From an uncultured Muribaculaceae bacterium (GTDB taxonomy: Bacteria; Bacillota_I; Bacilli_A; RF39; UBA660), in assembly GCA_964472425.1 (NCBI GenBank), contig CAYYLF010000002.1:1-49809 (forward strand): a stretch of DNA of 49,809 nt. Direction: 5' to 3'. Shown one piece after another: positions 6,758-36,597 of this stretch. Both the position numbers and the translations under genes were made by a program. Under the pieces are notes generated by a model. It saw nothing but the letters and a program-made list of their open reading frames with translations, had not been told where the DNA came from and made no database searches. Numbering within the stretch: the stretch's first letter is position 1; every line of letters begins with the position of its first letter.

Positions 6758-6788
6758 CGGCACGATATTCGTGTCGTTTTTCTTTTTT
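6758..6788 (+). terminator. Rho-independent terminator after truB
   Basis: CGGCACGA-tat-TCGTGTCG hairpin followed by TTTTTCTTTTTT. Confidence 0.65.
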
Positions 6789-6852
6789 ATACAATACATA
6801 CGTTCCTATTTTCTCGTCCAAAAGCCCATAAATACAGCATTTAAAATTTTTC

Positions 6853-6883
6853 TTGACATCTTTCGGGGGGGGGGTGATAAAAT
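6853..6883 (+). promoter_or_regulatory. Promoter of paralog A with a G10 tract in the spacer
   Basis: TTGACA 6853-6858; G x10 6865-6874; TGA; TAAAAT 6878-6883. Spacer is 19 nt. Confidence 0.6.
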
Positions 6884-7013
6884 AGAAGCATAGAAGACTA
6901 AAGCAACCTCTTCGTCATAAGAAAAGGACACACGAGGAACTTATCAACAAAAAAATGTGAGGGCAGGAGGCCAGTCTTTTATGTACCCAAATTTTGGAAA
7001 GAGGAAAAAAGTG

Positions 7014-8261
7014 ATGAAGAAAAAATTGGTAATAATCTTATCTGTACTGGTAATATTTGGCTTTGGAATATATGTCGGTAGGGGACCGAGCAACCTCAAA
7101 AACATAACCAAAATACCATCCAGTTCGAGTAGTATGATTGCGATGTATATCCAAGACGAAGAAGGCAATTACAATTTGAGTAATGCACAAGAATTCCCGA
7201 AGGATGGATACGTACTCAATACCGAGAAGAGTAATTGCAAGAATGGTGGAGTGATAACTCAGAACGCCAGTACGAAGGCTTTGAGTTTGAAAGTCAAAAC
7301 GAGCGATGAATGCTCAGTATTCTTCGATGTTGAAACTCTCAAAGTTGGAGAAAGCGCAAGAACAATCTTAGCTAAAGCGAACGATGCAGGCATAACAACT
7401 TATAACAATGGAAACAAAAAAGAAATGTTCGTATTCGACCATCCGGAGGCAGAACAAACTACGGGCTGGACCGAAGAAGAAAGAAGAGACTACAGATACA
7501 TAGGAAATGAACCCAATAACTATATAACATTCAATGATGAAACCTGGAAAATTATAGGTGTATTTACTGTTGAGATAGAGAATGGTAATAAAGAGCAACT
7601 AATTAAAATAATAAGAAATGACTATATAGGAGTAGGTATGTGGAATAATCCTGCCTTCACAGGTATAAATGAATGGTCTTCGGCCTCATCACAAATTTTA
7701 TTAAATGAAGACTATTATAATCAAAGTGGAAGTTATACAAGTACAGCAAGTGTAAAAGGACTAAGTACTATAGCACGTGCCCAAATCGCGAAAGCAAAAT
7801 GGTATTTGGGTGGGCCGAATACGATGTCAAATTTAAATGGCTCAGACTATTATAATTTTGAGCGAAGCACGAGAACATGTATAACAGAAAATGTAACCGA
7901 ATGCAACAATCAAACAAGAACAACGAGTATAATGCAAAATGTAGGATTAATGTATCCTAGTGATTATTTATATACATTTTCGAACGGAGTAAACAACACT
8001 TGTTATTCCAACGGGCAAAATTGTCAAACTAGTAAAGGTGGAACCCCAAGTTTAAGTTGGTTATTTAAAGGTGATTATCAATGGACTCAAACTCCATATG
8101 CAGGTAATCATAATAGTGCAGTTTATATCTATAAAGACGGATATATTAGTTATGATTGCACTATAGGTAGATACTTTCGTCCTGCCCTCTATCTCAACTC
8201 TTCAGTCAAAATAACTGGTGGAGATGGCTCAGAAGGCAACCCTTACACCTTATCCGAATAA
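7014..8261 (+). CDS. Anchored/secreted surface protein, paralog A (N-module + C-module)
   Basis: GGAAAGAGGA RBS 8 nt before ATG 7014. Signal anchor KKLVIILSVLVIFGFGIYVG. C-module RDYRYIGNEPNNYITFNDETWKIIGVF...RPALYLNSSVKITGGDGSEGNPYTL is shared with 21697 and 35047. Cys-rich. Confidence 0.75.
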   Translation: MKKKLVIILSVLVIFGFGIYVGRGPSNLKNITKIPSSSSSMIAMYIQDEEGNYNLSNAQEFPKDGYVLNTEKSNCKNGGVITQNASTKALSLKVKTSDECSVFFDVETLKVGESARTILAKANDAGITTYNNGNKKEMFVFDHPEAEQTTGWTEEERRDYRYIGNEPNNYITFNDETWKIIGVFTVEIENGNKEQLIKIIRNDYIGVGMWNNPAFTGINEWSSASSQILLNEDYYNQSGSYTSTASVKGLSTIARAQIAKAKWYLGGPNTMSNLNGSDYYNFERSTRTCITENVTECNNQTRTTSIMQNVGLMYPSDYLYTFSNGVNNTCYSNGQNCQTSKGGTPSLSWLFKGDYQWTQTPYAGNHNSAVYIYKDGYISYDCTIGRYFRPALYLNSSVKITGGDGSEGNPYTLSE

Positions 8262-8270
8262 CACCAATAG

Positions 8271-8299
8271 GTAGAAGACTCAACACACTTCTACTTTTT
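8271..8299 (+). terminator. Rho-independent terminator after paralog A
   Basis: GTAGAAG (8271-8277) pairs with CTTCTAC (8288-8294), followed by TTTTT. Confidence 0.7.
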
Positions 8300-20206: not shown

Positions 20207-21499
20207 TTATTTCAAAACCTTCCTTAGATTTATGACGTTCAAAGTGACGATTGTGAGAATATCCAATATCTCGCCTATGACGAGTCCGTAAAGGCCTATT
20301 CGCAAGAAACTGAATACCGTTATAGAAATCGTCTTGATGATTATTCCGCACGTGGCCGAACGGAATGCCAAATCCGTATGTCCGAGAGCCTGTAAAGTAG
20401 AGGATAGGGGCCCCTCCAAATTGTACAAGACGAACACCCCGGCCAATATTCTTATATATGTAGCCCCTTCGGTCGTCCCGTATATCAAATTGAGCAAGAA
20501 CTCGGGGAACAAAAAGACGATAGTATTAGAAACGAGTCCCAATACGAAGGACAACATCAAAGACTGCTTTAGCCGTCTTTTTATATTGCTACTATCTTTT
20601 TGCTCGTAAGACTTACTCACCTCAGGGACTAAAGCCGTGCTCACCGCTTGTATGATGAACGAAGGCATCATGAGCATGGGTACCACGTACGCATTGTATA
20701 TTCCGTATTCACCGACGATAAACTGGTTCGAGTAACCGACCGATTTCAACACGTAAGTCAAAATGATAGGTTCGAAAAAATACGCCACATTTCCGATGAT
20801 TCTTCCGCCTACGGTCGGAATACACAAATCCAAAACTTCCTTGGTCGTTCCAAAATCCGGCTTCAAATCTTCTTTCTCGATTGTAAAATTCTTCGGCAAA
20901 TAGAGTAGGAATATCACAATAGAGATAAACTCGCTCACGATGGAAAGCAAGATGAACCCGCACACTCCGTACATCGGACTCTCCCTTACGAGCCCCGGCA
21001 AGAACAACAAGATTATCACGAATCTGGCAATTTGCTCGATTATGTTCGACATCGTATGGGGCATCATTTTCTGTTTTCCGAAGAAATACCCTCGCAAGAT
21101 ACTCGAAATCGAAATGAACGGCAAGATGAAAGCCATCGACATTAAAGGATAACGAGCCGCCGGTTCATCGAGCAGATTGACTGCGATGTACTCGGCCGAG
21201 AAAATAATTGCAATCATCATGACCAAATTCAAGAACAAGGCGACCGGCACGACCGACATGACGATTTTCTTTCCTCGTTTATTTCCTCTCGCCACCAAAG
21301 TACTTATCGCCATCGGAAGTCCCAGCTGAGTTAAAGCGATGAGCAGGGAGTAGGTAGGCATGACTAAACTATAGAGATTTATCCCATCTGACCCGACTAT
21401 CCTCGTAAACGCGATTCTGATTAAAAAACCCATCGCCTTAGTCACCAATGAACCGATTAATAAAATAAAAGCACTTTTAAAAAATAGACTTTTCTTCAT
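20207..21499 (-). CDS. MOP-superfamily flippase (SpoVB / MurJ-like)
   Basis: Polytopic membrane protein. N-terminus KSAFILLIGSLVTKAMGFLIRIAFTRIVGSDGINLYSLVMPTY matches the SpoVB/MurJ pattern. Shorter (430 aa) than typical members. Confidence 0.7.
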   Translation of the reverse strand: MKKSLFFKSAFILLIGSLVTKAMGFLIRIAFTRIVGSDGINLYSLVMPTYSLLIALTQLGLPMAISTLVARGNKRGKKIVMSVVPVALFLNLVMMIAIIFSAEYIAVNLLDEPAARYPLMSMAFILPFISISSILRGYFFGKQKMMPHTMSNIIEQIARFVIILLFLPGLVRESPMYGVCGFILLSIVSEFISIVIFLLYLPKNFTIEKEDLKPDFGTTKEVLDLCIPTVGGRIIGNVAYFFEPIILTYVLKSVGYSNQFIVGEYGIYNAYVVPMLMMPSFIIQAVSTALVPEVSKSYEQKDSSNIKRRLKQSLMLSFVLGLVSNTIVFLFPEFLLNLIYGTTEGATYIRILAGVFVLYNLEGPLSSTLQALGHTDLAFRSATCGIIIKTISITVFSFLRIGLYGLVIGEILDILTIVTLNVINLRKVLK

Positions 21500-21533
21500 T
21501 CTAAGAAAATTTTATGCGACTACCAAATTTTTC

Positions 21534-21563
21534 TTGACAAAATTCGGGGGGGGGTGCTACAAT
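21534..21563 (+). promoter_or_regulatory. Promoter of paralog B with a G9 tract in the spacer
   Basis: TTGACA 21534-21539; G x9 21546-21554; TGC; TACAAT 21558-21563. Spacer is 18 nt. The flanks are homologous to 6843-6900. Confidence 0.6.
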
Positions 21564-21696
21564 AGGACTATAGAAGACTGTAGTTTCTTTTAATTGCTTA
21601 AGAAAAACGAGCGATTAGAGTATTATCAACCGAAAAAATATGTGGGCAGGAAGCCAGCCTTTTATGTACCCAAAATATGGAAAGAGGAAAAAAGTT

Positions 21697-22953
21697 ATGA
21701 AGAAAAAATTGGTAATAATTTTATCTGTATTGGTAATATTTGGCTTTGGAATATATGTCGGTAGGGGAACGAACCAACTCAAAAACATAACTAAAATACC
21801 ATCCAGTTCAAGTAGCATGATTGCGATGTACATCCAAGACGAGGAAGGAAACTATCAACTGAGCGATGCTCGCGAATTTCCGAAAGATGGGTATGTTCTA
21901 AATACTGAGAAAAGCAGTTGTAAGAATGGGGGCAAGATAACTCAAAATGCTAGTACTAAGGCTTTGAGTTTAAAGGTTAAGACAAGTGACGAATGTACGG
22001 TGTATTTCGATGTAGTGACGAGCGCAAATCCAAGTGCAGATATGTTGATTGCTAAAGCAAATGACTCAAGTATAACGACATATGCAACAGGGAACAAAAA
22101 AGAGATGTTTATTTTCGACCATCCGGAGGCAACTCAGACGACTGGATGGACCGATGAAGAGAGAAGAGACTACAGGTACATAGGAAATGAACCTAATAAT
22201 TATATAACATTCAACGACGAGACATGGAGAATAATAGGAGTATTTACAGTAGAAACTGAAACAGGAGATAAAGAACAATTGATTAAAATAATTAGAAATG
22301 AGTCCATAGAAAACCTCCCATGGGACTCAACTCGAAATGAATGGTCAACGGCCCAACTGCAAAAATTTTTGAATGAAGATTACTACAATAATGAAAACAG
22401 TTTTAAATATAACTACATCAATCAATATGGAAATTCACAAACTATCACTATTTCAAAAGGTTTAACTAGTTTAAGTCAAAAACAAATAATGAAATCAAAG
22501 TGGTATTTAGGAAGTGCAAGCAATAATCAAAACGGACAAGAATTATATATTACTGAAAGAGGAACTAGAACCTGTGTAACAACAGAACAATGTAGCGGAG
22601 AAACAAGAACGACAAGTATAATACAAAACGTAGGCTTAATGTATCCCAGTGATTATATATTTACATATGCTTATGGTGTAGATACAAAATGTTATTCCAA
22701 TGGAACAAATTGTTGGACTTCAAGTGGCGGTAATCCAAATAGTAGTTGGTTACTACACAAAGAATATCAAAATACATTGTCACCGTTTGATTATAATAGT
22801 ATCAGCATACTAGTTGTCTATTCTACGGGTGGTACATTTGCTCTTAGCGGTAAAGACAATAGAACTACACGGCCCTCTCTATACCTTTCTTCTTCAGTAA
22901 GAATAACCGGCGGCGACGGAAGCCAATCTAATCCTTACACGCTCGCCAATTAA
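21697..22953 (+). CDS. Anchored/secreted surface protein, paralog B (N-module + C-module)
   Basis: Same RBS, signal anchor and modules as paralog A. Ends RPSLYLSSSVRITGGDGSQSNPYTL. Confidence 0.75.
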   Translation: MKKKLVIILSVLVIFGFGIYVGRGTNQLKNITKIPSSSSSMIAMYIQDEEGNYQLSDAREFPKDGYVLNTEKSSCKNGGKITQNASTKALSLKVKTSDECTVYFDVVTSANPSADMLIAKANDSSITTYATGNKKEMFIFDHPEATQTTGWTDEERRDYRYIGNEPNNYITFNDETWRIIGVFTVETETGDKEQLIKIIRNESIENLPWDSTRNEWSTAQLQKFLNEDYYNNENSFKYNYINQYGNSQTITISKGLTSLSQKQIMKSKWYLGSASNNQNGQELYITERGTRTCVTTEQCSGETRTTSIIQNVGLMYPSDYIFTYAYGVDTKCYSNGTNCWTSSGGNPNSSWLLHKEYQNTLSPFDYNSISILVVYSTGGTFALSGKDNRTTRPSLYLSSSVRITGGDGSQSNPYTLAN

Positions 22954-22985: not shown

Positions 22986-23085
22986 GGAAAAATGTGATAT
23001 TTCTGCCAAGTATATCTAGAATTTCGTGATAAAACTCGTTGAAATAGACGGAATTTTGTGATAAATGCTTGTAGAGGTGAATGAA

Positions 23086-24423
23086 ATGCCAAGACTTAGA
23101 AGAAAAATAGATGCATTTTTGCTAAGTTGGAAAAACGATGAAAACAGACTTCCGCTCGTAGTAAAAGGGGCAAGACAGATAGGAAAAACCGACGCCATCG
23201 AAAACTTTGCGGCCAACAACTACAAGTACCTTGTAGATATCAACTTCGTACTAGACAAACAATACAAAGGCATCTTTGACGATGGATACGACGTGGACAC
23301 GATTATCAGAAACATCTCTCTCATCAATCCCAGATTTGAATTCGTTCCAAAAGAAACGCTCATCTTTTTCGACGAAATACAAGATTGTGCAAACGCAGCT
23401 ACTTCTTTGAAATCGTTCAACATACATGGCCGTTATGACGTCATTTGTTCGGGCTCGCTTATGGGTATAAATTATAACGAAATCGAATCTAATGCTGTCG
23501 GAAACAAACGAAATTACGAAATGTATTCCCTTGACTTCGAAGAATTTCTCTGGGCCAAAGGTTATAAAGAAGAACAAATCGAAGACATGTATTCCTACAT
23601 GAAAGAATGCAAGCCACTTCCCCAAATTATGTACGACGTCATGCTCGACAATTCCCGAGAATACATGGTCGTTGGAGGGATGCCTGCCATAGTAAATAGA
23701 TTCGTAACTCAAAAGAACTATAGTGGTATACTCGAAATGCAAAATCAGATACTCCTAGACTACAAAGAAGACATCACCAAATACGCCCAAGGTCTAGACC
23801 AGACTCGCATACTGAATGTCTATAACAAAATACCAGTTTTCTTGGGAAACGAAAACAAAAAATTCCAAATATCGAAAGTCGAACACGGGGCGAGAACACG
23901 CGAGTACATAGGTACAATCGATTGGCTCGACCGCGCTGGAATAATAAACATCTGCCACTGTCTCGAACAACTAGAGCTTCCCCTCAAAGCAAACTACAAT
24001 CCGGACAATTATAGAATTTACTTTAGAGATACAGGTCTACTAATCGCGTCACTCGACGAAGAATCTCAAATGGATTTGAGAAACAACAAAAACTTCAACA
24101 CATATAAAGGAGCTCTATACGAAAATATAGTAGGGGACATGTTAGTCAAAGCCGGCTATTCGCTTTACTTCTACAAAAACGAAAAAGGCACAATCGAAAT
24201 GGACTTCTTCGTAAGGGACGCCGATTCGCTCATCCCAATCGAAGTCAAAGCGAACGACAACAGTACTCCGTCGCTCAATAACTTGATAAACTCGGATTCG
24301 TTCAAAGTCATCAAATACGGAATAAAACTGTGCAACAAGAACATCGGCTTCAATGGCAAATTCTACACCTTCCCGTACTTTCTGACCTTCCTATTGAAAA
24401 GATATCTAAAAGAGAAAAAATAA
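23086..24423 (+). CDS. AAA ATPase of the COG1373 / DUF4143 type, copy 1
   Basis: Walker A GARQIGKT, Walker B LIFFDEIQ. C-terminal ..YENIVGDMLVKAGYSLYFYK....EMDFFV....IPIEVK nuclease-like tail. AGAGGTGA RBS before ATG 23086. Confidence 0.8.
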   Translation: MPRLRRKIDAFLLSWKNDENRLPLVVKGARQIGKTDAIENFAANNYKYLVDINFVLDKQYKGIFDDGYDVDTIIRNISLINPRFEFVPKETLIFFDEIQDCANAATSLKSFNIHGRYDVICSGSLMGINYNEIESNAVGNKRNYEMYSLDFEEFLWAKGYKEEQIEDMYSYMKECKPLPQIMYDVMLDNSREYMVVGGMPAIVNRFVTQKNYSGILEMQNQILLDYKEDITKYAQGLDQTRILNVYNKIPVFLGNENKKFQISKVEHGARTREYIGTIDWLDRAGIINICHCLEQLELPLKANYNPDNYRIYFRDTGLLIASLDEESQMDLRNNKNFNTYKGALYENIVGDMLVKAGYSLYFYKNEKGTIEMDFFVRDADSLIPIEVKANDNSTPSLNNLINSDSFKVIKYGIKLCNKNIGFNGKFYTFPYFLTFLLKRYLKEKK

Positions 24424-24575: not shown

Positions 24576-25838
24576 ATGAAATACGTCAATAGAACTATGG
24601 AAAAAACACTAAAAAAATTTATAGGAAACTATCCTGTTATTTTAATCACTGGGCCACGTCAAGTAGGGAAAACGACACTTCTAAATTATTTATCCAGTAC
24701 TTCCAAGAAAAAAATAAACTATGTTACTTTAGATGACAAAATTGTAAGTGCTCAGGCAAGTGCCGATCCCGAGTTGTTTCTTAGAATGCACGAGACCCCT
24801 CTCGTAATAGACGAATTCCAGTATGCTCCAGAAATACTGTCGTATATCAAAATTCAAATCGACCAAGCGAGAAAAGATGCCATGTTCGGCAACAAAAAGG
24901 AAGTTGGCACACTTTATTATCTTACCGGTAGTCAGATTTTTGAAACGATGAAAGATGTGACAGAATCCTTAGCTGGAAGAATCGGAATACTGGATTTATA
25001 CGCCTTTTCGACGCGCGAACTCGAAAATTCTGAAGAAATACCTTTCGTACCAGATGTGCAAAAACTCAAAAAGAAAAAACAGGTTGATAGAGTATCCATT
25101 CCTAAATTATTCGAAAGAATACTGAAAGGAAGCTACCCAGAAATAAACTTTAACAAGAATATAAGTTTTGAAAATTATTTTAGGGATTACATTAGAACTT
25201 ACATAGAAAGAGATATAAGAAAGATAATAAACATCAAAGACGAAAACAAATTTATTCACTTCTTAACTTCAATTGCCGCCCGAACCGGACAAGAGTTTAT
25301 CGCTGAACACATAGGAAAAGAAATAGGAATAACGGGTAAAACTGTCGACGAGTGGCTATCGCTCCTCAAAAATACGGGTATAATTTACCTTTTAAAACCT
25401 TACTCGAATAACTTTGTCGCTCGTGCCATCAAAAGAGAAAAAATCTACTTTATGGACACAGGGCTTGCCTGCTATTTAACTGGCTACACCGACTCATCCA
25501 TCCTAGAAAAGAGTGCTTATAATGGCGCCATTTTCGAAACGTATATTATAAGCGAAATCGTCAAATCGTATGAAAATAATGGAATCGACCCCGACAGACA
25601 TCTATATTTTTATAGAGATAACCGCCAACAAGAAATCGATTTAATTGTAAACGACAATAATTTCCTTTATCCAGTCGAAATCAAAAAAAGCACCAATCCG
25701 AGTCGAGAAGCGACTAAAAATTTCGATGTTCTCAAAAATTCGGGGTACAATATAGGCAATGGAGTAGTGCTCTGCCTTTGTAAAGAAATCACGGCGATAG
25801 ACGACAACAACTATCGTGTTCCAATTGAATATATATAA
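24576..25838 (+). CDS. AAA ATPase of the COG1373 / DUF4143 type, copy 2
   Basis: Walker A GPRQVGKTT, Walker B LVIDEFQ. C-terminal ..FETYIISEIVKSY.......QEIDLIV......PVEIKKS. Confidence 0.8.
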   Translation: MKYVNRTMEKTLKKFIGNYPVILITGPRQVGKTTLLNYLSSTSKKKINYVTLDDKIVSAQASADPELFLRMHETPLVIDEFQYAPEILSYIKIQIDQARKDAMFGNKKEVGTLYYLTGSQIFETMKDVTESLAGRIGILDLYAFSTRELENSEEIPFVPDVQKLKKKKQVDRVSIPKLFERILKGSYPEINFNKNISFENYFRDYIRTYIERDIRKIINIKDENKFIHFLTSIAARTGQEFIAEHIGKEIGITGKTVDEWLSLLKNTGIIYLLKPYSNNFVARAIKREKIYFMDTGLACYLTGYTDSSILEKSAYNGAIFETYIISEIVKSYENNGIDPDRHLYFYRDNRQQEIDLIVNDNNFLYPVEIKKSTNPSREATKNFDVLKNSGYNIGNGVVLCLCKEITAIDDNNYRVPIEYI

Positions 25839-34662: not shown

Positions 34663-34929
34663 TTACGACTTTTTCCTCGTAGAAGGTCTTTTCCTATCCT
34701 CAGCCCCATACATCATACTCACTGGCAGCCTATCCCTTTCATCCGTCCGATAGAGCAGATAATCTATGCTCGTATCGTAATAATCGGCCAACTTTTTGAG
34801 TATGTCCGTCGGTATATCATTAGTCTCAGTCTCGTATTGACTGTAACCTGTTTGAGACATATTTAATATTTTCGCAATTTCAGTCTGTGTTTTATCTACA
34901 TCTTCTCTTAACTCTTTTAATCTATTCAT
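34663..34929 (-). CDS. XRE-family helix-turn-helix transcriptional regulator
   Basis: RLKELREDVDKTQTEIAKILNMSQTGYSQYETETNDIPTDILKKLADYYDTSIDYLL. GGTGA RBS 8 nt before ATG 34929. Confidence 0.8.
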   Translation of the reverse strand: MNRLKELREDVDKTQTEIAKILNMSQTGYSQYETETNDIPTDILKKLADYYDTSIDYLLYRTDERDRLPVSMMYGAEDRKRPSTRKKS

Positions 34930-34956
34930 AATATTTATCACCGTATCAAATATAAT

Positions 34957-35046: not shown

Positions 35047-36597
35047 ATGAAATTAGAAACGAAGAGAATGATTTGCTTATTGATAGTAATCACGTCTATC
35101 ATCGCGATTGTAGGAACTGTATCTTTCGCGTACTTCACGTCGGTCGCCAATCCGGTTACGCAAGAGGCGAGCATATCGACGGGAACGACGAAGGTAACTT
35201 TTGCCGATGGAGACTTAGGGATGAGTGGTACTTTAAGTTTTGGTGATTCGGTTACAAAGAAGTTCACGATTACGAATACGGGTACGACTGTGGCAAGTGT
35301 GAAGTTATATTGGAAAGATTTAGTCAATACCTATACGACGGGAAGTCTCACTTATACTTTGAGTTATAGTGAAACGGAGAATGGGACATACAAAGAAGTA
35401 GTAGGGAAGAAGAATGTACCGAGCAGCAGTAGACTCCAAATGGCGACATTAGTCGATAAAGTGACTATTCCAGTTGGAGGAACATACTATTACAATTTGG
35501 TCATTACTTTAAATTACTTAGATGATGTAAATCAAGATGCCGATAAGATAGCGAGTCTATCTACATACTTCCAAGCAGAAGACTTACGTACAAATGTTAA
35601 ACCTACGAACGAGTTCGCAAACCTATTGCTCAGTAAAGCGAACGACGAAAATGTGACCGATTACAATTCGGGTAACAAACAAGAGATGTTCGTATTCGAC
35701 CATGAGATTACTAACTCGTACACGTATACAGAATATACTGAAGAAGGGGAAGAAGAAACATATACAGATACATGTACAGCAACCCAAATCGAAGATTGGA
35801 CAGATGAGGAAAGAAGAGATTATAGATACATAGGAAGTGAACCTAACAACTATATAACCTTCAATGACGAGACTTGGAGAATAATAGGAGTATTTACAGT
35901 CGAGACTGAGACAGGCGAAAAAGAGCAATTGGTCAAAATAGTTAGAGAAGAAAGTATAGGCAGTATAGATTTAGATCCTGAACAGCATGATACTCGTTAT
36001 TCTAGTCCCGGTTGGATAGGTACTGCAATGCAAATTATGCTAAACGGCGATTATTATAATAAAGAAAGTTTTACATACAAAAATGGTTCAAACGAAATAA
36101 CGATAAATGGTTTGAATTCTAAATCTCGTGGGCAAGTAGCCAAAGTAAAATGGTATTTAGGGAGTGAAAATTATGACGGTGGAATAACGGTGCATAACTA
36201 TTATTCTTCAGAAAGAGGAATAAAAGGGTGTATGTCTTTTTGTGACAAAAGAAAGGATGTATTTAATGTAGTACAAAATATTGGGTTTATATATGTGACC
36301 GACTATATGTTTACATACGCTGATGGAGTAAATGATAAATGTTACGACGATGGTAGATGTAATTCTGATAATGCAAAAGCAGGTTGGCTATATAATGGTG
36401 CATATCAATGGACTTTATCTCAATCGCTTAGTGGAATTACAATATTAGGAATTCGAGAAAGTGGAGCTATAATTCTTGCTTTCCCTGGCAATTTTACGGA
36501 GCTAACTTACAGTACTCGTCCATCTCTTTACCTCAATTCCTCTATCAAAATAATCGATGGGGACGGAAGTGCCGGAAATCCATACACGATAGGCTGA
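35047..36597 (+). CDS. Secreted protein, paralog C: SipW-type signal + TasA/camelysin-like module + family C-module
   Basis: AAGAGGA RBS. IVGTVSFAYFTSVANPV signal pattern. FGDSVTKKFTITNTGT. C-module RDYRYIGSEPNNYITFNDETWRIIGVFTVETE...RPSLYLNSSIKIIDGDGSAGNPYTI. Confidence 0.75.
   Translation: MKLETKRMICLLIVITSIIAIVGTVSFAYFTSVANPVTQEASISTGTTKVTFADGDLGMSGTLSFGDSVTKKFTITNTGTTVASVKLYWKDLVNTYTTGSLTYTLSYSETENGTYKEVVGKKNVPSSSRLQMATLVDKVTIPVGGTYYYNLVITLNYLDDVNQDADKIASLSTYFQAEDLRTNVKPTNEFANLLLSKANDENVTDYNSGNKQEMFVFDHEITNSYTYTEYTEEGEEETYTDTCTATQIEDWTDEERRDYRYIGSEPNNYITFNDETWRIIGVFTVETETGEKEQLVKIVREESIGSIDLDPEQHDTRYSSPGWIGTAMQIMLNGDYYNKESFTYKNGSNEITINGLNSKSRGQVAKVKWYLGSENYDGGITVHNYYSSERGIKGCMSFCDKRKDVFNVVQNIGFIYVTDYMFTYADGVNDKCYDDGRCNSDNAKAGWLYNGAYQWTLSQSLSGITILGIRESGAIILAFPGNFTELTYSTRPSLYLNSSIKIIDGDGSAGNPYTIG

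Follow-up and report, generated by a model that had tools for sequence, protein, structure and literature searches.

Poly-G tracts in the promoter spacers of two paralogous genes for putative surface proteins, a candidate phase-variation switch in uncultured gut Bacilli

The stretch of DNA analysed here (49.8 kb, hereafter the window) belongs to the chromosome of a spore-forming Firmicute and carries nusA-infB-truB, infC-rplT, relA, spoIVA, a gene for a spoVB-like flippase and one for an EssC-like FtsK/SpoIIIE ATPase. It also carries three members of one protein family, referred to as paralog A, paralog B and the third paralog. The features on which the following analysis bears are listed below, starting with the cassette of paralog B.

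21525..21533 (+): A/T-rich block AAATTTTTC abutting the -35 hexamer of B; identical in paralog A (6844-6852) and the upstream limit of homology between A and B
21534..21539 (+): -35 hexamer TTGACA (consensus), from the sequence and a promoter scan
21540-21545 (+): aaattc, between the -35 hexamer and the G run of the paralog-B promoter
21546..21554 (+): G9 homopolymer within the 18-nt spacer; proposed slippage site
21555..21563 (+): extended -10 of paralog B, with TG at 21555-56, C, and TACAAT at 21558-63
21570..21696 (+): predicted 5'UTR of B, about 127 nt, from a predicted transcription start; 80-96% identity to A over its last 65 nt
21697..22953 (+): paralog B coding sequence, 418 aa
22957..22985 (+): weak hairpin resembling a terminator, TAGCA-tagtc-TGCTA with an adjoining A run and T run, past the stop codon of B; recognised by eye and unreported by the scan
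6758-6776: truB terminator preceding paralog A
6853..6883 (+): paralog-A promoter, with TTGACA at 6853-6858, tctttc, G10 at 6865-6874, TGA and TAAAAT at 6878-6883; 19-nt spacer
7014..8261 (+): paralog A coding sequence, 415 aa, 65% identical to B
8271-8299: hairpin GTAGAAG-N10-CTTCTAC followed by a T run, after paralog A
34663-34941 (-): XRE-type HTH gene, divergent from the third paralog
35047..36597 (+): third and more distant paralog, of 516 aa, which matches 74% of B at 45% identity and has no G tract

Paralogs A and B look like stand-alone monocistronic cassettes, each made of a promoter, a UTR, a coding sequence and a terminator. Because the gene upstream of B (spoVB-like) is divergent, B requires a promoter of its own, and the hairpin and T run at 8271-8299 make it unlikely that A is cotranscribed with the VWA and SPFH genes that follow it. 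The ATG at 21697 in B (7014 in A) was taken as the start codon because a good RBS, AGAGGA (21683-88 in B), precedes it; the upstream in-frame ATG at 21640, used as the start of B in the P0001 call, was rejected, having no RBS and a GTG as its equivalent in A. The 5'UTR of B matched none of the Rfam families and showed no significant fold (z-scores of -1.4 and -0.7), on which grounds a riboswitch or structured leader was rejected.

The neighbourhood of the cassettes holds several features of its own. On the minus strand the G9 tract reads as C9 and precedes, by 47-55 nt, the start of the divergent spoVB-like gene (20207-21499), which has no recognisable sigma-A promoter or SD and is probably dependent on a sporulation sigma factor. 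Directly downstream of B, two adjacent genes for AAA_14/DUF4143-type ATPases (23065-24423 and 24576-25838) occupy a lower-GC stretch (36-37%) which may, together with the B cassette, represent an inserted island. The ORF for ribosomal protein L20 (15921-16481) has a C-terminal extension of about 35 aa matching Rho_N / SAP / HeH (Pfam E 2e-10), an unusual L20 fusion. The third paralog, which has no G tract, and a family member on an unrelated Logan contig (L081:2475-3773, +) are each paired with a divergent XRE-type HTH gene (L081:2145-2381, -, in the latter), and this pairing of tract-less paralogs suggests an alternative, regulator-based control for some members of the family.

The promoter of B had first been described in a sequence-only reading, as TTGACA, aaattc, G9, TGC and TACAAT with an 18-nt spacer, and the element lies exactly where that description had placed it. 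A consensus promoter scan ranked it at the top of its region, with 11/12 matches, an 18-nt spacer and TG before the -10; as the scan covered spacers of 16-18 nt, the 19-nt site of paralog A is unlisted there. These features support the identification of a putative strong promoter of the sigma-A/sigma-70 type with a G run in its spacer, and the AAATTTTTC block upstream of the -35 is possibly an UP-like element. The predicted +1 of B coincides with a conserved ATAGAAGACT (21570-79).

A homopolymer of at least about 7 nt between recognisable -35 and -10 hexamers is present at both B (G9, 18 nt) and A (G10, 19 nt). No other G or C run in the 49.8 kb exceeds 5, and no other homopolymer, whatever its base, is as long as the two tracts: the census of G runs gave seven of length 5, none of lengths 6-8 and a single run each of 9 and 10, while C runs reach at most 5 and A and T runs at most 8 in a sequence of 58% A+T. 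Words of eight G occur in the window at the A and B tracts exclusively, as against an expectation of 0.17 from shuffled sequence, and their count was reached in 0 of 100 shuffles.

The promoters of A and B lie 14.7 kb apart and both have TG at -15/-14. Their homology, already proposed from the letters, was borne out by a sliding comparison, which revealed a conserved island made of AAATTTTTCTTGACA, the G run, TGnTAnAATAG and ATAGAAGACT. The flanks that the two promoters had been said to share need a small amendment. Upstream of the G run, AAATTTTTCTTGACA is indeed an exact match between A and B; downstream, the proposed 'CTATAGAAGACT.TAG' is slightly inaccurate, its first and last letters being specific to B. 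The downstream block reads GCATAGAAGACTAAAG in A and CTATAGAAGACTGTAG in B, and what is truly common to both is ATAG, 3-4 nt, then ATAGAAGACT.

Beyond this island the A and B cassettes are mosaic. The same sliding comparison found no homology upstream of about -45, and the roughly 50 nt of UTR that follow the promoter island are only about 56% identical. That an uninterrupted G-run promoter was kept while the neighbouring UTR decayed argues for selection on the promoter. Further downstream, the last 65 nt or so of the UTR together with the first 140 nt or so of the coding sequence are 86-96% identical in DNA, synonymous sites included (6947-7157 against 21630-21840), and identity falls to 30-70% in the C-terminal half of the coding sequence. 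The near-identical 5' ends suggest gene conversion, a recombination handle common to the paralogs, or selective constraint acting at the nucleotide level in the leader and signal-anchor region.

The protein encoded by paralog B is predicted to consist of a membrane-anchor helix (residues 5-16), a beta-sandwich (about 40-106) and a DUF6273 / C-type-lectin-like domain (about 135-418). Its AlphaFold2 model (pLDDT 77, pTM 0.72) accordingly shows an N-terminal helix, a beta-sandwich and a large C-terminal domain. In the PDB the model has a single significant match, to the DUF6273 domain at the N terminus of the T. ramosa IgA peptidase (9qa6; E 4.8e-05, probability 1.00, at a query-normalised TM-score of only 0.31), and its top BFVD matches include several phage proteins annotated as DUF6273. 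With Pfam PF19789, B gave no match even at E<=1 and A none at E<=0.01, and Pfam and NCBIfam together returned nothing meaningful for A and B, an HTS/MetA match being below threshold. Among 22 close homologues of B, 12 match PF19789 (best E 4.9e-06). The A/B family is very large, with 1,653 matches at E<=1e-3, and its members often carry PF19789 (DUF6273) plus the prepilin N_methyl domain (PF07963) or Flg_new repeats; PF19789 is a precomputed assignment in more distant homologues, and PF07963 is present in many of the more distant relatives. PF07963 is absent from A and B, whose N terminus MKKKLVIILSVLVIFGFGIYVGRG has no prepilin motif of the G/FTLIE type. Neither protein has a lipobox cysteine, the first Cys of A or B being residue 75, well past the hydrophobic anchor, nor a tandem-repeat region.

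DUF6273 has been described as a C-type-lectin-like domain that is targeted by DGRs in phage receptor-binding proteins, the 'tentaclins' (PMC10743442), and the IgA peptidase of Thomasclavelia ramosa has it at its N terminus (PMC12402451). With a membrane anchor and a lectin-like DUF6273 ectodomain, A and B can reasonably be regarded as the related surface proteins that the sequence-only reading took them for, presumably exposed at the cell surface. Such an anchored ectodomain of a ligand-binding type makes the product a fitting one for a contingency gene.

We then compared the window with 80 related loci (L001-L080; 258 kb in total, 30.7% GC) obtained from a scan of species-representative genomes; almost all belong to MAGs from the gut that bear the label uncultured Bacilli, Tenericutes, Erysipelotrichaceae or 'Mycoplasma sp. 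CAG'. These loci contain 20 runs of at least G7, where by our own estimate about 0.4 would be expected on the + strand, and all but one of the 20 mark the 5' end of a family gene; the exception is a G7 in the WYLGG motif of L038. The tracts fall into five architectures, as follows.

Class 1 (window A and B, locus L010): TTGACA-N6-G9/10-TGn-TAnAAT
Class 2: TTGAC-G7/8/10-about 10 nt-TATAAT
Class 3: TTGACA-N3-G7-TGGTGC-TATAAT
Class 4: TTTACA...GTTACCT-G9-11, with no clear -10
Class 5: run inside the membrane-anchor coding region

The L010 promoter (TTGACA-N6-G9-TGT-TACAAT) comes from a species whose proteins are about 44% identical and is recognisably homologous to the promoters of the window, while L011, in the same MAG, has kept the G9-TGA-TATAAT half with its -35 displaced (see the insertion in L088 below). 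Tract lengths in these homologous class-1 promoters are 9, 10, 9 and 9. Approximately three quarters of the family genes in relatives have ordinary promoters. For class 2, a look-up in an abundant clade of the human gut reduced 16 contigs to one place, and the ortholog there has an ordinary spacer of 17 nt and no tract, which makes the tract an optional add-on, dispensable for promoter function.

When the tracts of the window are counted with those of the 80 loci, all 22 runs of at least G7 are G on the sense strand, with no C run among them, across at least five positions relative to the promoter or coding sequence; candidate causes of this bias are a replication-strand bias of slippage, an effect of the non-template strand on RNA polymerase and shared ancestry.

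Two related loci appear rearranged. In a related species (L088:275-2455, contig NODE_1764 of ERZ14425193), a class-1 promoter is occupied by a 2.16-kb segment, located between TTGACA-N6-G9 and G9-TGATATAAT and thus with a G9 on both sides. The segment ends in perfect 22-nt inverted repeats (285-306 and 2423-2444) and encodes a 63-aa protein, a Fic protein, a protein of metallo-beta-lactamase fold and a 93-aa protein, with no evident transposase among its called genes. It appears to be a mobile element inserted in the G tract, with the G9 doubled in the manner of a target-site duplication. The L010 family gene, for its part, has next to it a partial second copy of gpmI, from the 3' end. In L083:1-3684, which is the same locus, the N-terminal module (209 aa) and the DUF6273 module (281 aa) are called as separate ORFs 138 nt apart, located between the full gpmI (iPGM) and a 93-aa copy of the gpmI C-terminal end, as if a cassette had integrated at the gpmI 3' end; the 281-aa ORF is identical in five assemblies.

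Differences in tract length were found at two sets of relatives. Paralogs of the rabbit-gut MAG CANQRX have a run that codes for LGGG in the membrane anchor. In L076 (1549-1557) it is a G9 and in frame, whereas in L033 (1329-1338) and L040 (362-371) it is a G10 that causes a frameshift and a stop after about five codons, the remainder being intact in the next frame. Judged from the assembled genes, this is the classic picture of translational phase variation. The L011 locus, in turn, has G9 in L088/L089 and G8 in L090, for an identical protein and strains 98% identical in DNA. This single polymorphism comes from a contig of about 5.5x coverage in a species other than that of the window, and the two strains differ by 8 indels in all. 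Taken over the gene family of A and B, G tracts are very likely to be hypermutable, as the comparative data indicate.

A search of metagenome contigs with a promoter pattern of variable G length gave one chance match, a high-GC contig with G6 (L082), and the same pattern gave no match in viral contigs. Exact-protein look-ups in indexed assemblies had no record of the flanking TruB, L20 and SpoVB-like proteins or of P0002, P0003 and P0011, the closest paralogs, and a look-up by cluster yielded no accession. None of these searches brought up another copy of the organism.

Within the window itself, the tracts do differ by one nucleotide as first noted, G9 in B and G10 in A. The reading of this difference as a signature of independent mutation goes too far, since the paralogs are old (65% identical in amino acids): a 9 versus 10 is compatible with independent slippage and could also be an old fixed difference or a homopolymer sequencing error.

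We propose, with a probability of roughly 0.6, that the G9 in the sigma-A-type promoter spacer of paralog B works as a simple-sequence contingency element, at which slipped-strand mutation would cause phase variation of transcription or set it like a rheostat. Mispairing of slipped strands at replication would add a G to the tract of B or remove one from it. Such a gain or loss would set the spacing between -35 and -10 at 17, 18 or 19 nt and alter the rotational register of the two hexamers, and the altered register would result in higher or lower transcription of the downstream monocistronic gene, in a heritable and reversible manner. A 17-nt spacer is optimal for promoters of the sigma-70 type. 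The predicted states would be a most active G8 (17 nt), an intermediate G9 as in B (18 nt) and a low G10 as in A (19 nt). Slippage being local, A and B would change independently of each other, and their independent switching would generate subpopulations that differ in surface repertoire, amounting to a combinatorial expression of the two genes. An extended -10 TG lessens the dependence of a promoter on its -35 and on the length of its spacer; with a TG in both promoters, the outcome may therefore be graded, as with a dimmer, and the effect is possibly modest. It also counts against a switch that neither of the assembled tracts gives the optimal 17-nt spacer (18 in B, 19 in A), and that most family genes in relatives have no tract, which is moreover dispensable in one ortholog.

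A first alternative, which we consider unlikely, is that the G run is a fixed spacer or recognition element, such as the site of a regulator or a DNA-shape feature next to the extended -10, and that 9 versus 10 is an old fixed difference. It would account for the conserved position of the run across paralogs and species, for the predominance of 9 and 10 among the class-1 lengths and for the fact that variation was seen only outside the window locus; the pairing of other paralogs with XRE-type regulators also suggests that the family uses conventional regulation as well. A single protein-binding site is nevertheless a misfit for runs that occupy several non-homologous places with respect to the -35 and -10 and that occur within coding sequences too, where G9 and G10 set different frames, and a fixed element does not agree with a G8/G9 difference between strains that have an identical protein. 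Uninterrupted runs of 9-10 G are also intrinsically prone to slippage, as is well established for the mutation of simple sequence repeats. Within single isolates of Treponema pallidum, tracts of 7-11 G have been observed (PMC7864442).

Less probable still is that the tract does mutate and is near-neutral at A and B, being a hotspot or leftover with no switching role, because an extended -10 promoter would fire at any spacing of 17-19 nt. The TG at -15/-14 in both promoters and the ortholog of a G-tract promoter that lacks the tract are what one would expect in such a case. A near-neutral run should hardly have stayed pure as A and B diverged, and from one species to another, however, while the adjoining UTR fell to about 56% identity, and it would leave the strong enrichment of tracts at the 5' ends of family genes only without a reason. 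Finally, an artefact of sequencing or assembly (two-colour Illumina poly-G calls or misassembly) was rejected as very improbable, for even if homopolymer lengths are error-prone and the related contig L084 begins 12 nt downstream of such a tract, the runs are short, internal, placed exactly between conserved -35 and -10 elements at two loci of one contig and recurrent in independent assemblies from several projects, so that at most their exact length, by plus or minus one G, could be artefactual.

The proposed contingency element has counterparts in well-studied bacteria. In Neisseria meningitidis, the poly-G tract of porA and the poly-C tract of opc, both located in the spacer, reportedly give high, intermediate or no expression of the surface protein. 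The references for these two tracts are Sarkari 1994 and Tauseef 2013, as listed in PMC5084427. The likeness lies in a homopolymer that sets the spacer length and in a graded expression, as predicted here for 17, 18 and 19 nt; by contrast, the host is a Gram-negative pathogen, porA and opc are single genes with no paralog family of homologous switch promoters, and the proteins are unrelated.

Each of the Mycoplasma hyorhinis vlp genes has a poly-A tract in its promoter, and indels in the tract switch transcription (Citti & Wise 1995 and Rosengarten & Wise 1991, summarised in PMC10502178; references in PMC11868660). This system resembles ours in consisting of paralogous surface-protein genes that form separate transcription units with homopolymer promoters of their own, in the combinatorial surface that results from independent switching, a feature of the Vlp system, and in a host from a Bacilli-related lineage of low GC. 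It differs in several ways. The tract is poly-A instead of poly-G, and Vlp proteins are lipoproteins that contain internal repeats; A and B lack a lipobox and have a DUF6273 lectin-like ectodomain, so that the likeness is one of regulatory logic only. The vlp genes are clustered, unlike A and B, which stand 14.7 kb from each other in a setting of housekeeping genes. The present host is a spore-former (the window contains spoIVA and a spoVB-like gene), and the switching, which is demonstrated for Vlp, is proposed here from sequence.

Closer in the nature of the tract are tp0126, tprL and tprE/G/J of Treponema pallidum, for which the length of a poly-G tract sets promoter activity (PMC7864442 and its references 15 and 16). 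There too, tracts of about 7-11 G are found in promoters of paralogous genes for surface or outer-membrane proteins, that of tp0126 being between -35 and -10, and several tract lengths coexist in one isolate (PMC7864442). The host is however a spirochaete, the tract of tpr subfamily II is upstream of the start site and not strictly in the spacer, and the proteins (Tpr porins, OmpW) are unrelated (PMC7864442).

A different kind of parallel is offered by the phage tentaclins and DGR targets with DUF6273 (PF19789; PMC10743442) and by the T. ramosa IgA peptidase (PMC12402451; 9qa6), which resemble the C-terminal part of B in predicted fold. They share with B a C-type-lectin-like, ligand-binding domain that has repeatedly come under diversification mechanisms. 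The mechanisms are not the same: DUF6273 is there the object of DGR mutagenesis of the binding site, or part of a protease, whereas a variability of expression by promoter slippage is proposed here. Among those ORFs of the window that were scanned against Pfam, a subset of the whole, none has a reverse-transcriptase domain.

The literature searched contains no description of the A/B system, of poly-G switching in these lineages or of repeat-based regulation of DUF6273 genes, and simple-sequence contingency loci were not found described there in uncultured commensal gut Firmicutes. Such loci are textbook examples in Neisseria, Haemophilus, Campylobacter, Helicobacter, Treponema and Mycoplasma, which are host-adapted pathogens. 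The mechanism is thus classical, in a lineage and a gene family for which it had no description in that literature.

Sense-strand poly-G tracts may have been acquired repeatedly, and apparently independently, by genes of one lectin-like surface-protein family, each at its 5' end, in many uncultured gut Bacilli. More broadly, we tentatively suggest, at somewhat less than even odds, that the uncultured gut Bacilli (RF39, 'Tenericutes', 'Mycoplasma sp. CAG'-like bacteria and related spore-formers) carry a lineage-wide 'phasome'. It would consist of a large family of membrane- or pilin-anchored DUF6273 lectin-like proteins under the control of sense-strand poly-G tracts, which would have arisen repeatedly (in at least three promoter-spacer registers, an upstream context and the N-terminal coding sequence) and would act by both transcriptional and translational switching, one tract also being an insertion point for a mobile element.

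A sense-strand run of at least seven G at the 5' end of a family gene provides a signature with which metagenomes can be mined for phase-variable genes. If the promoters do switch, this would explain the assembly breaks and the strain heterogeneity at these loci, and the DUF6273 lectin-like family would be the variable surface face of these bacteria, for which phage, IgA and the binding of host glycans are plausible selective pressures.
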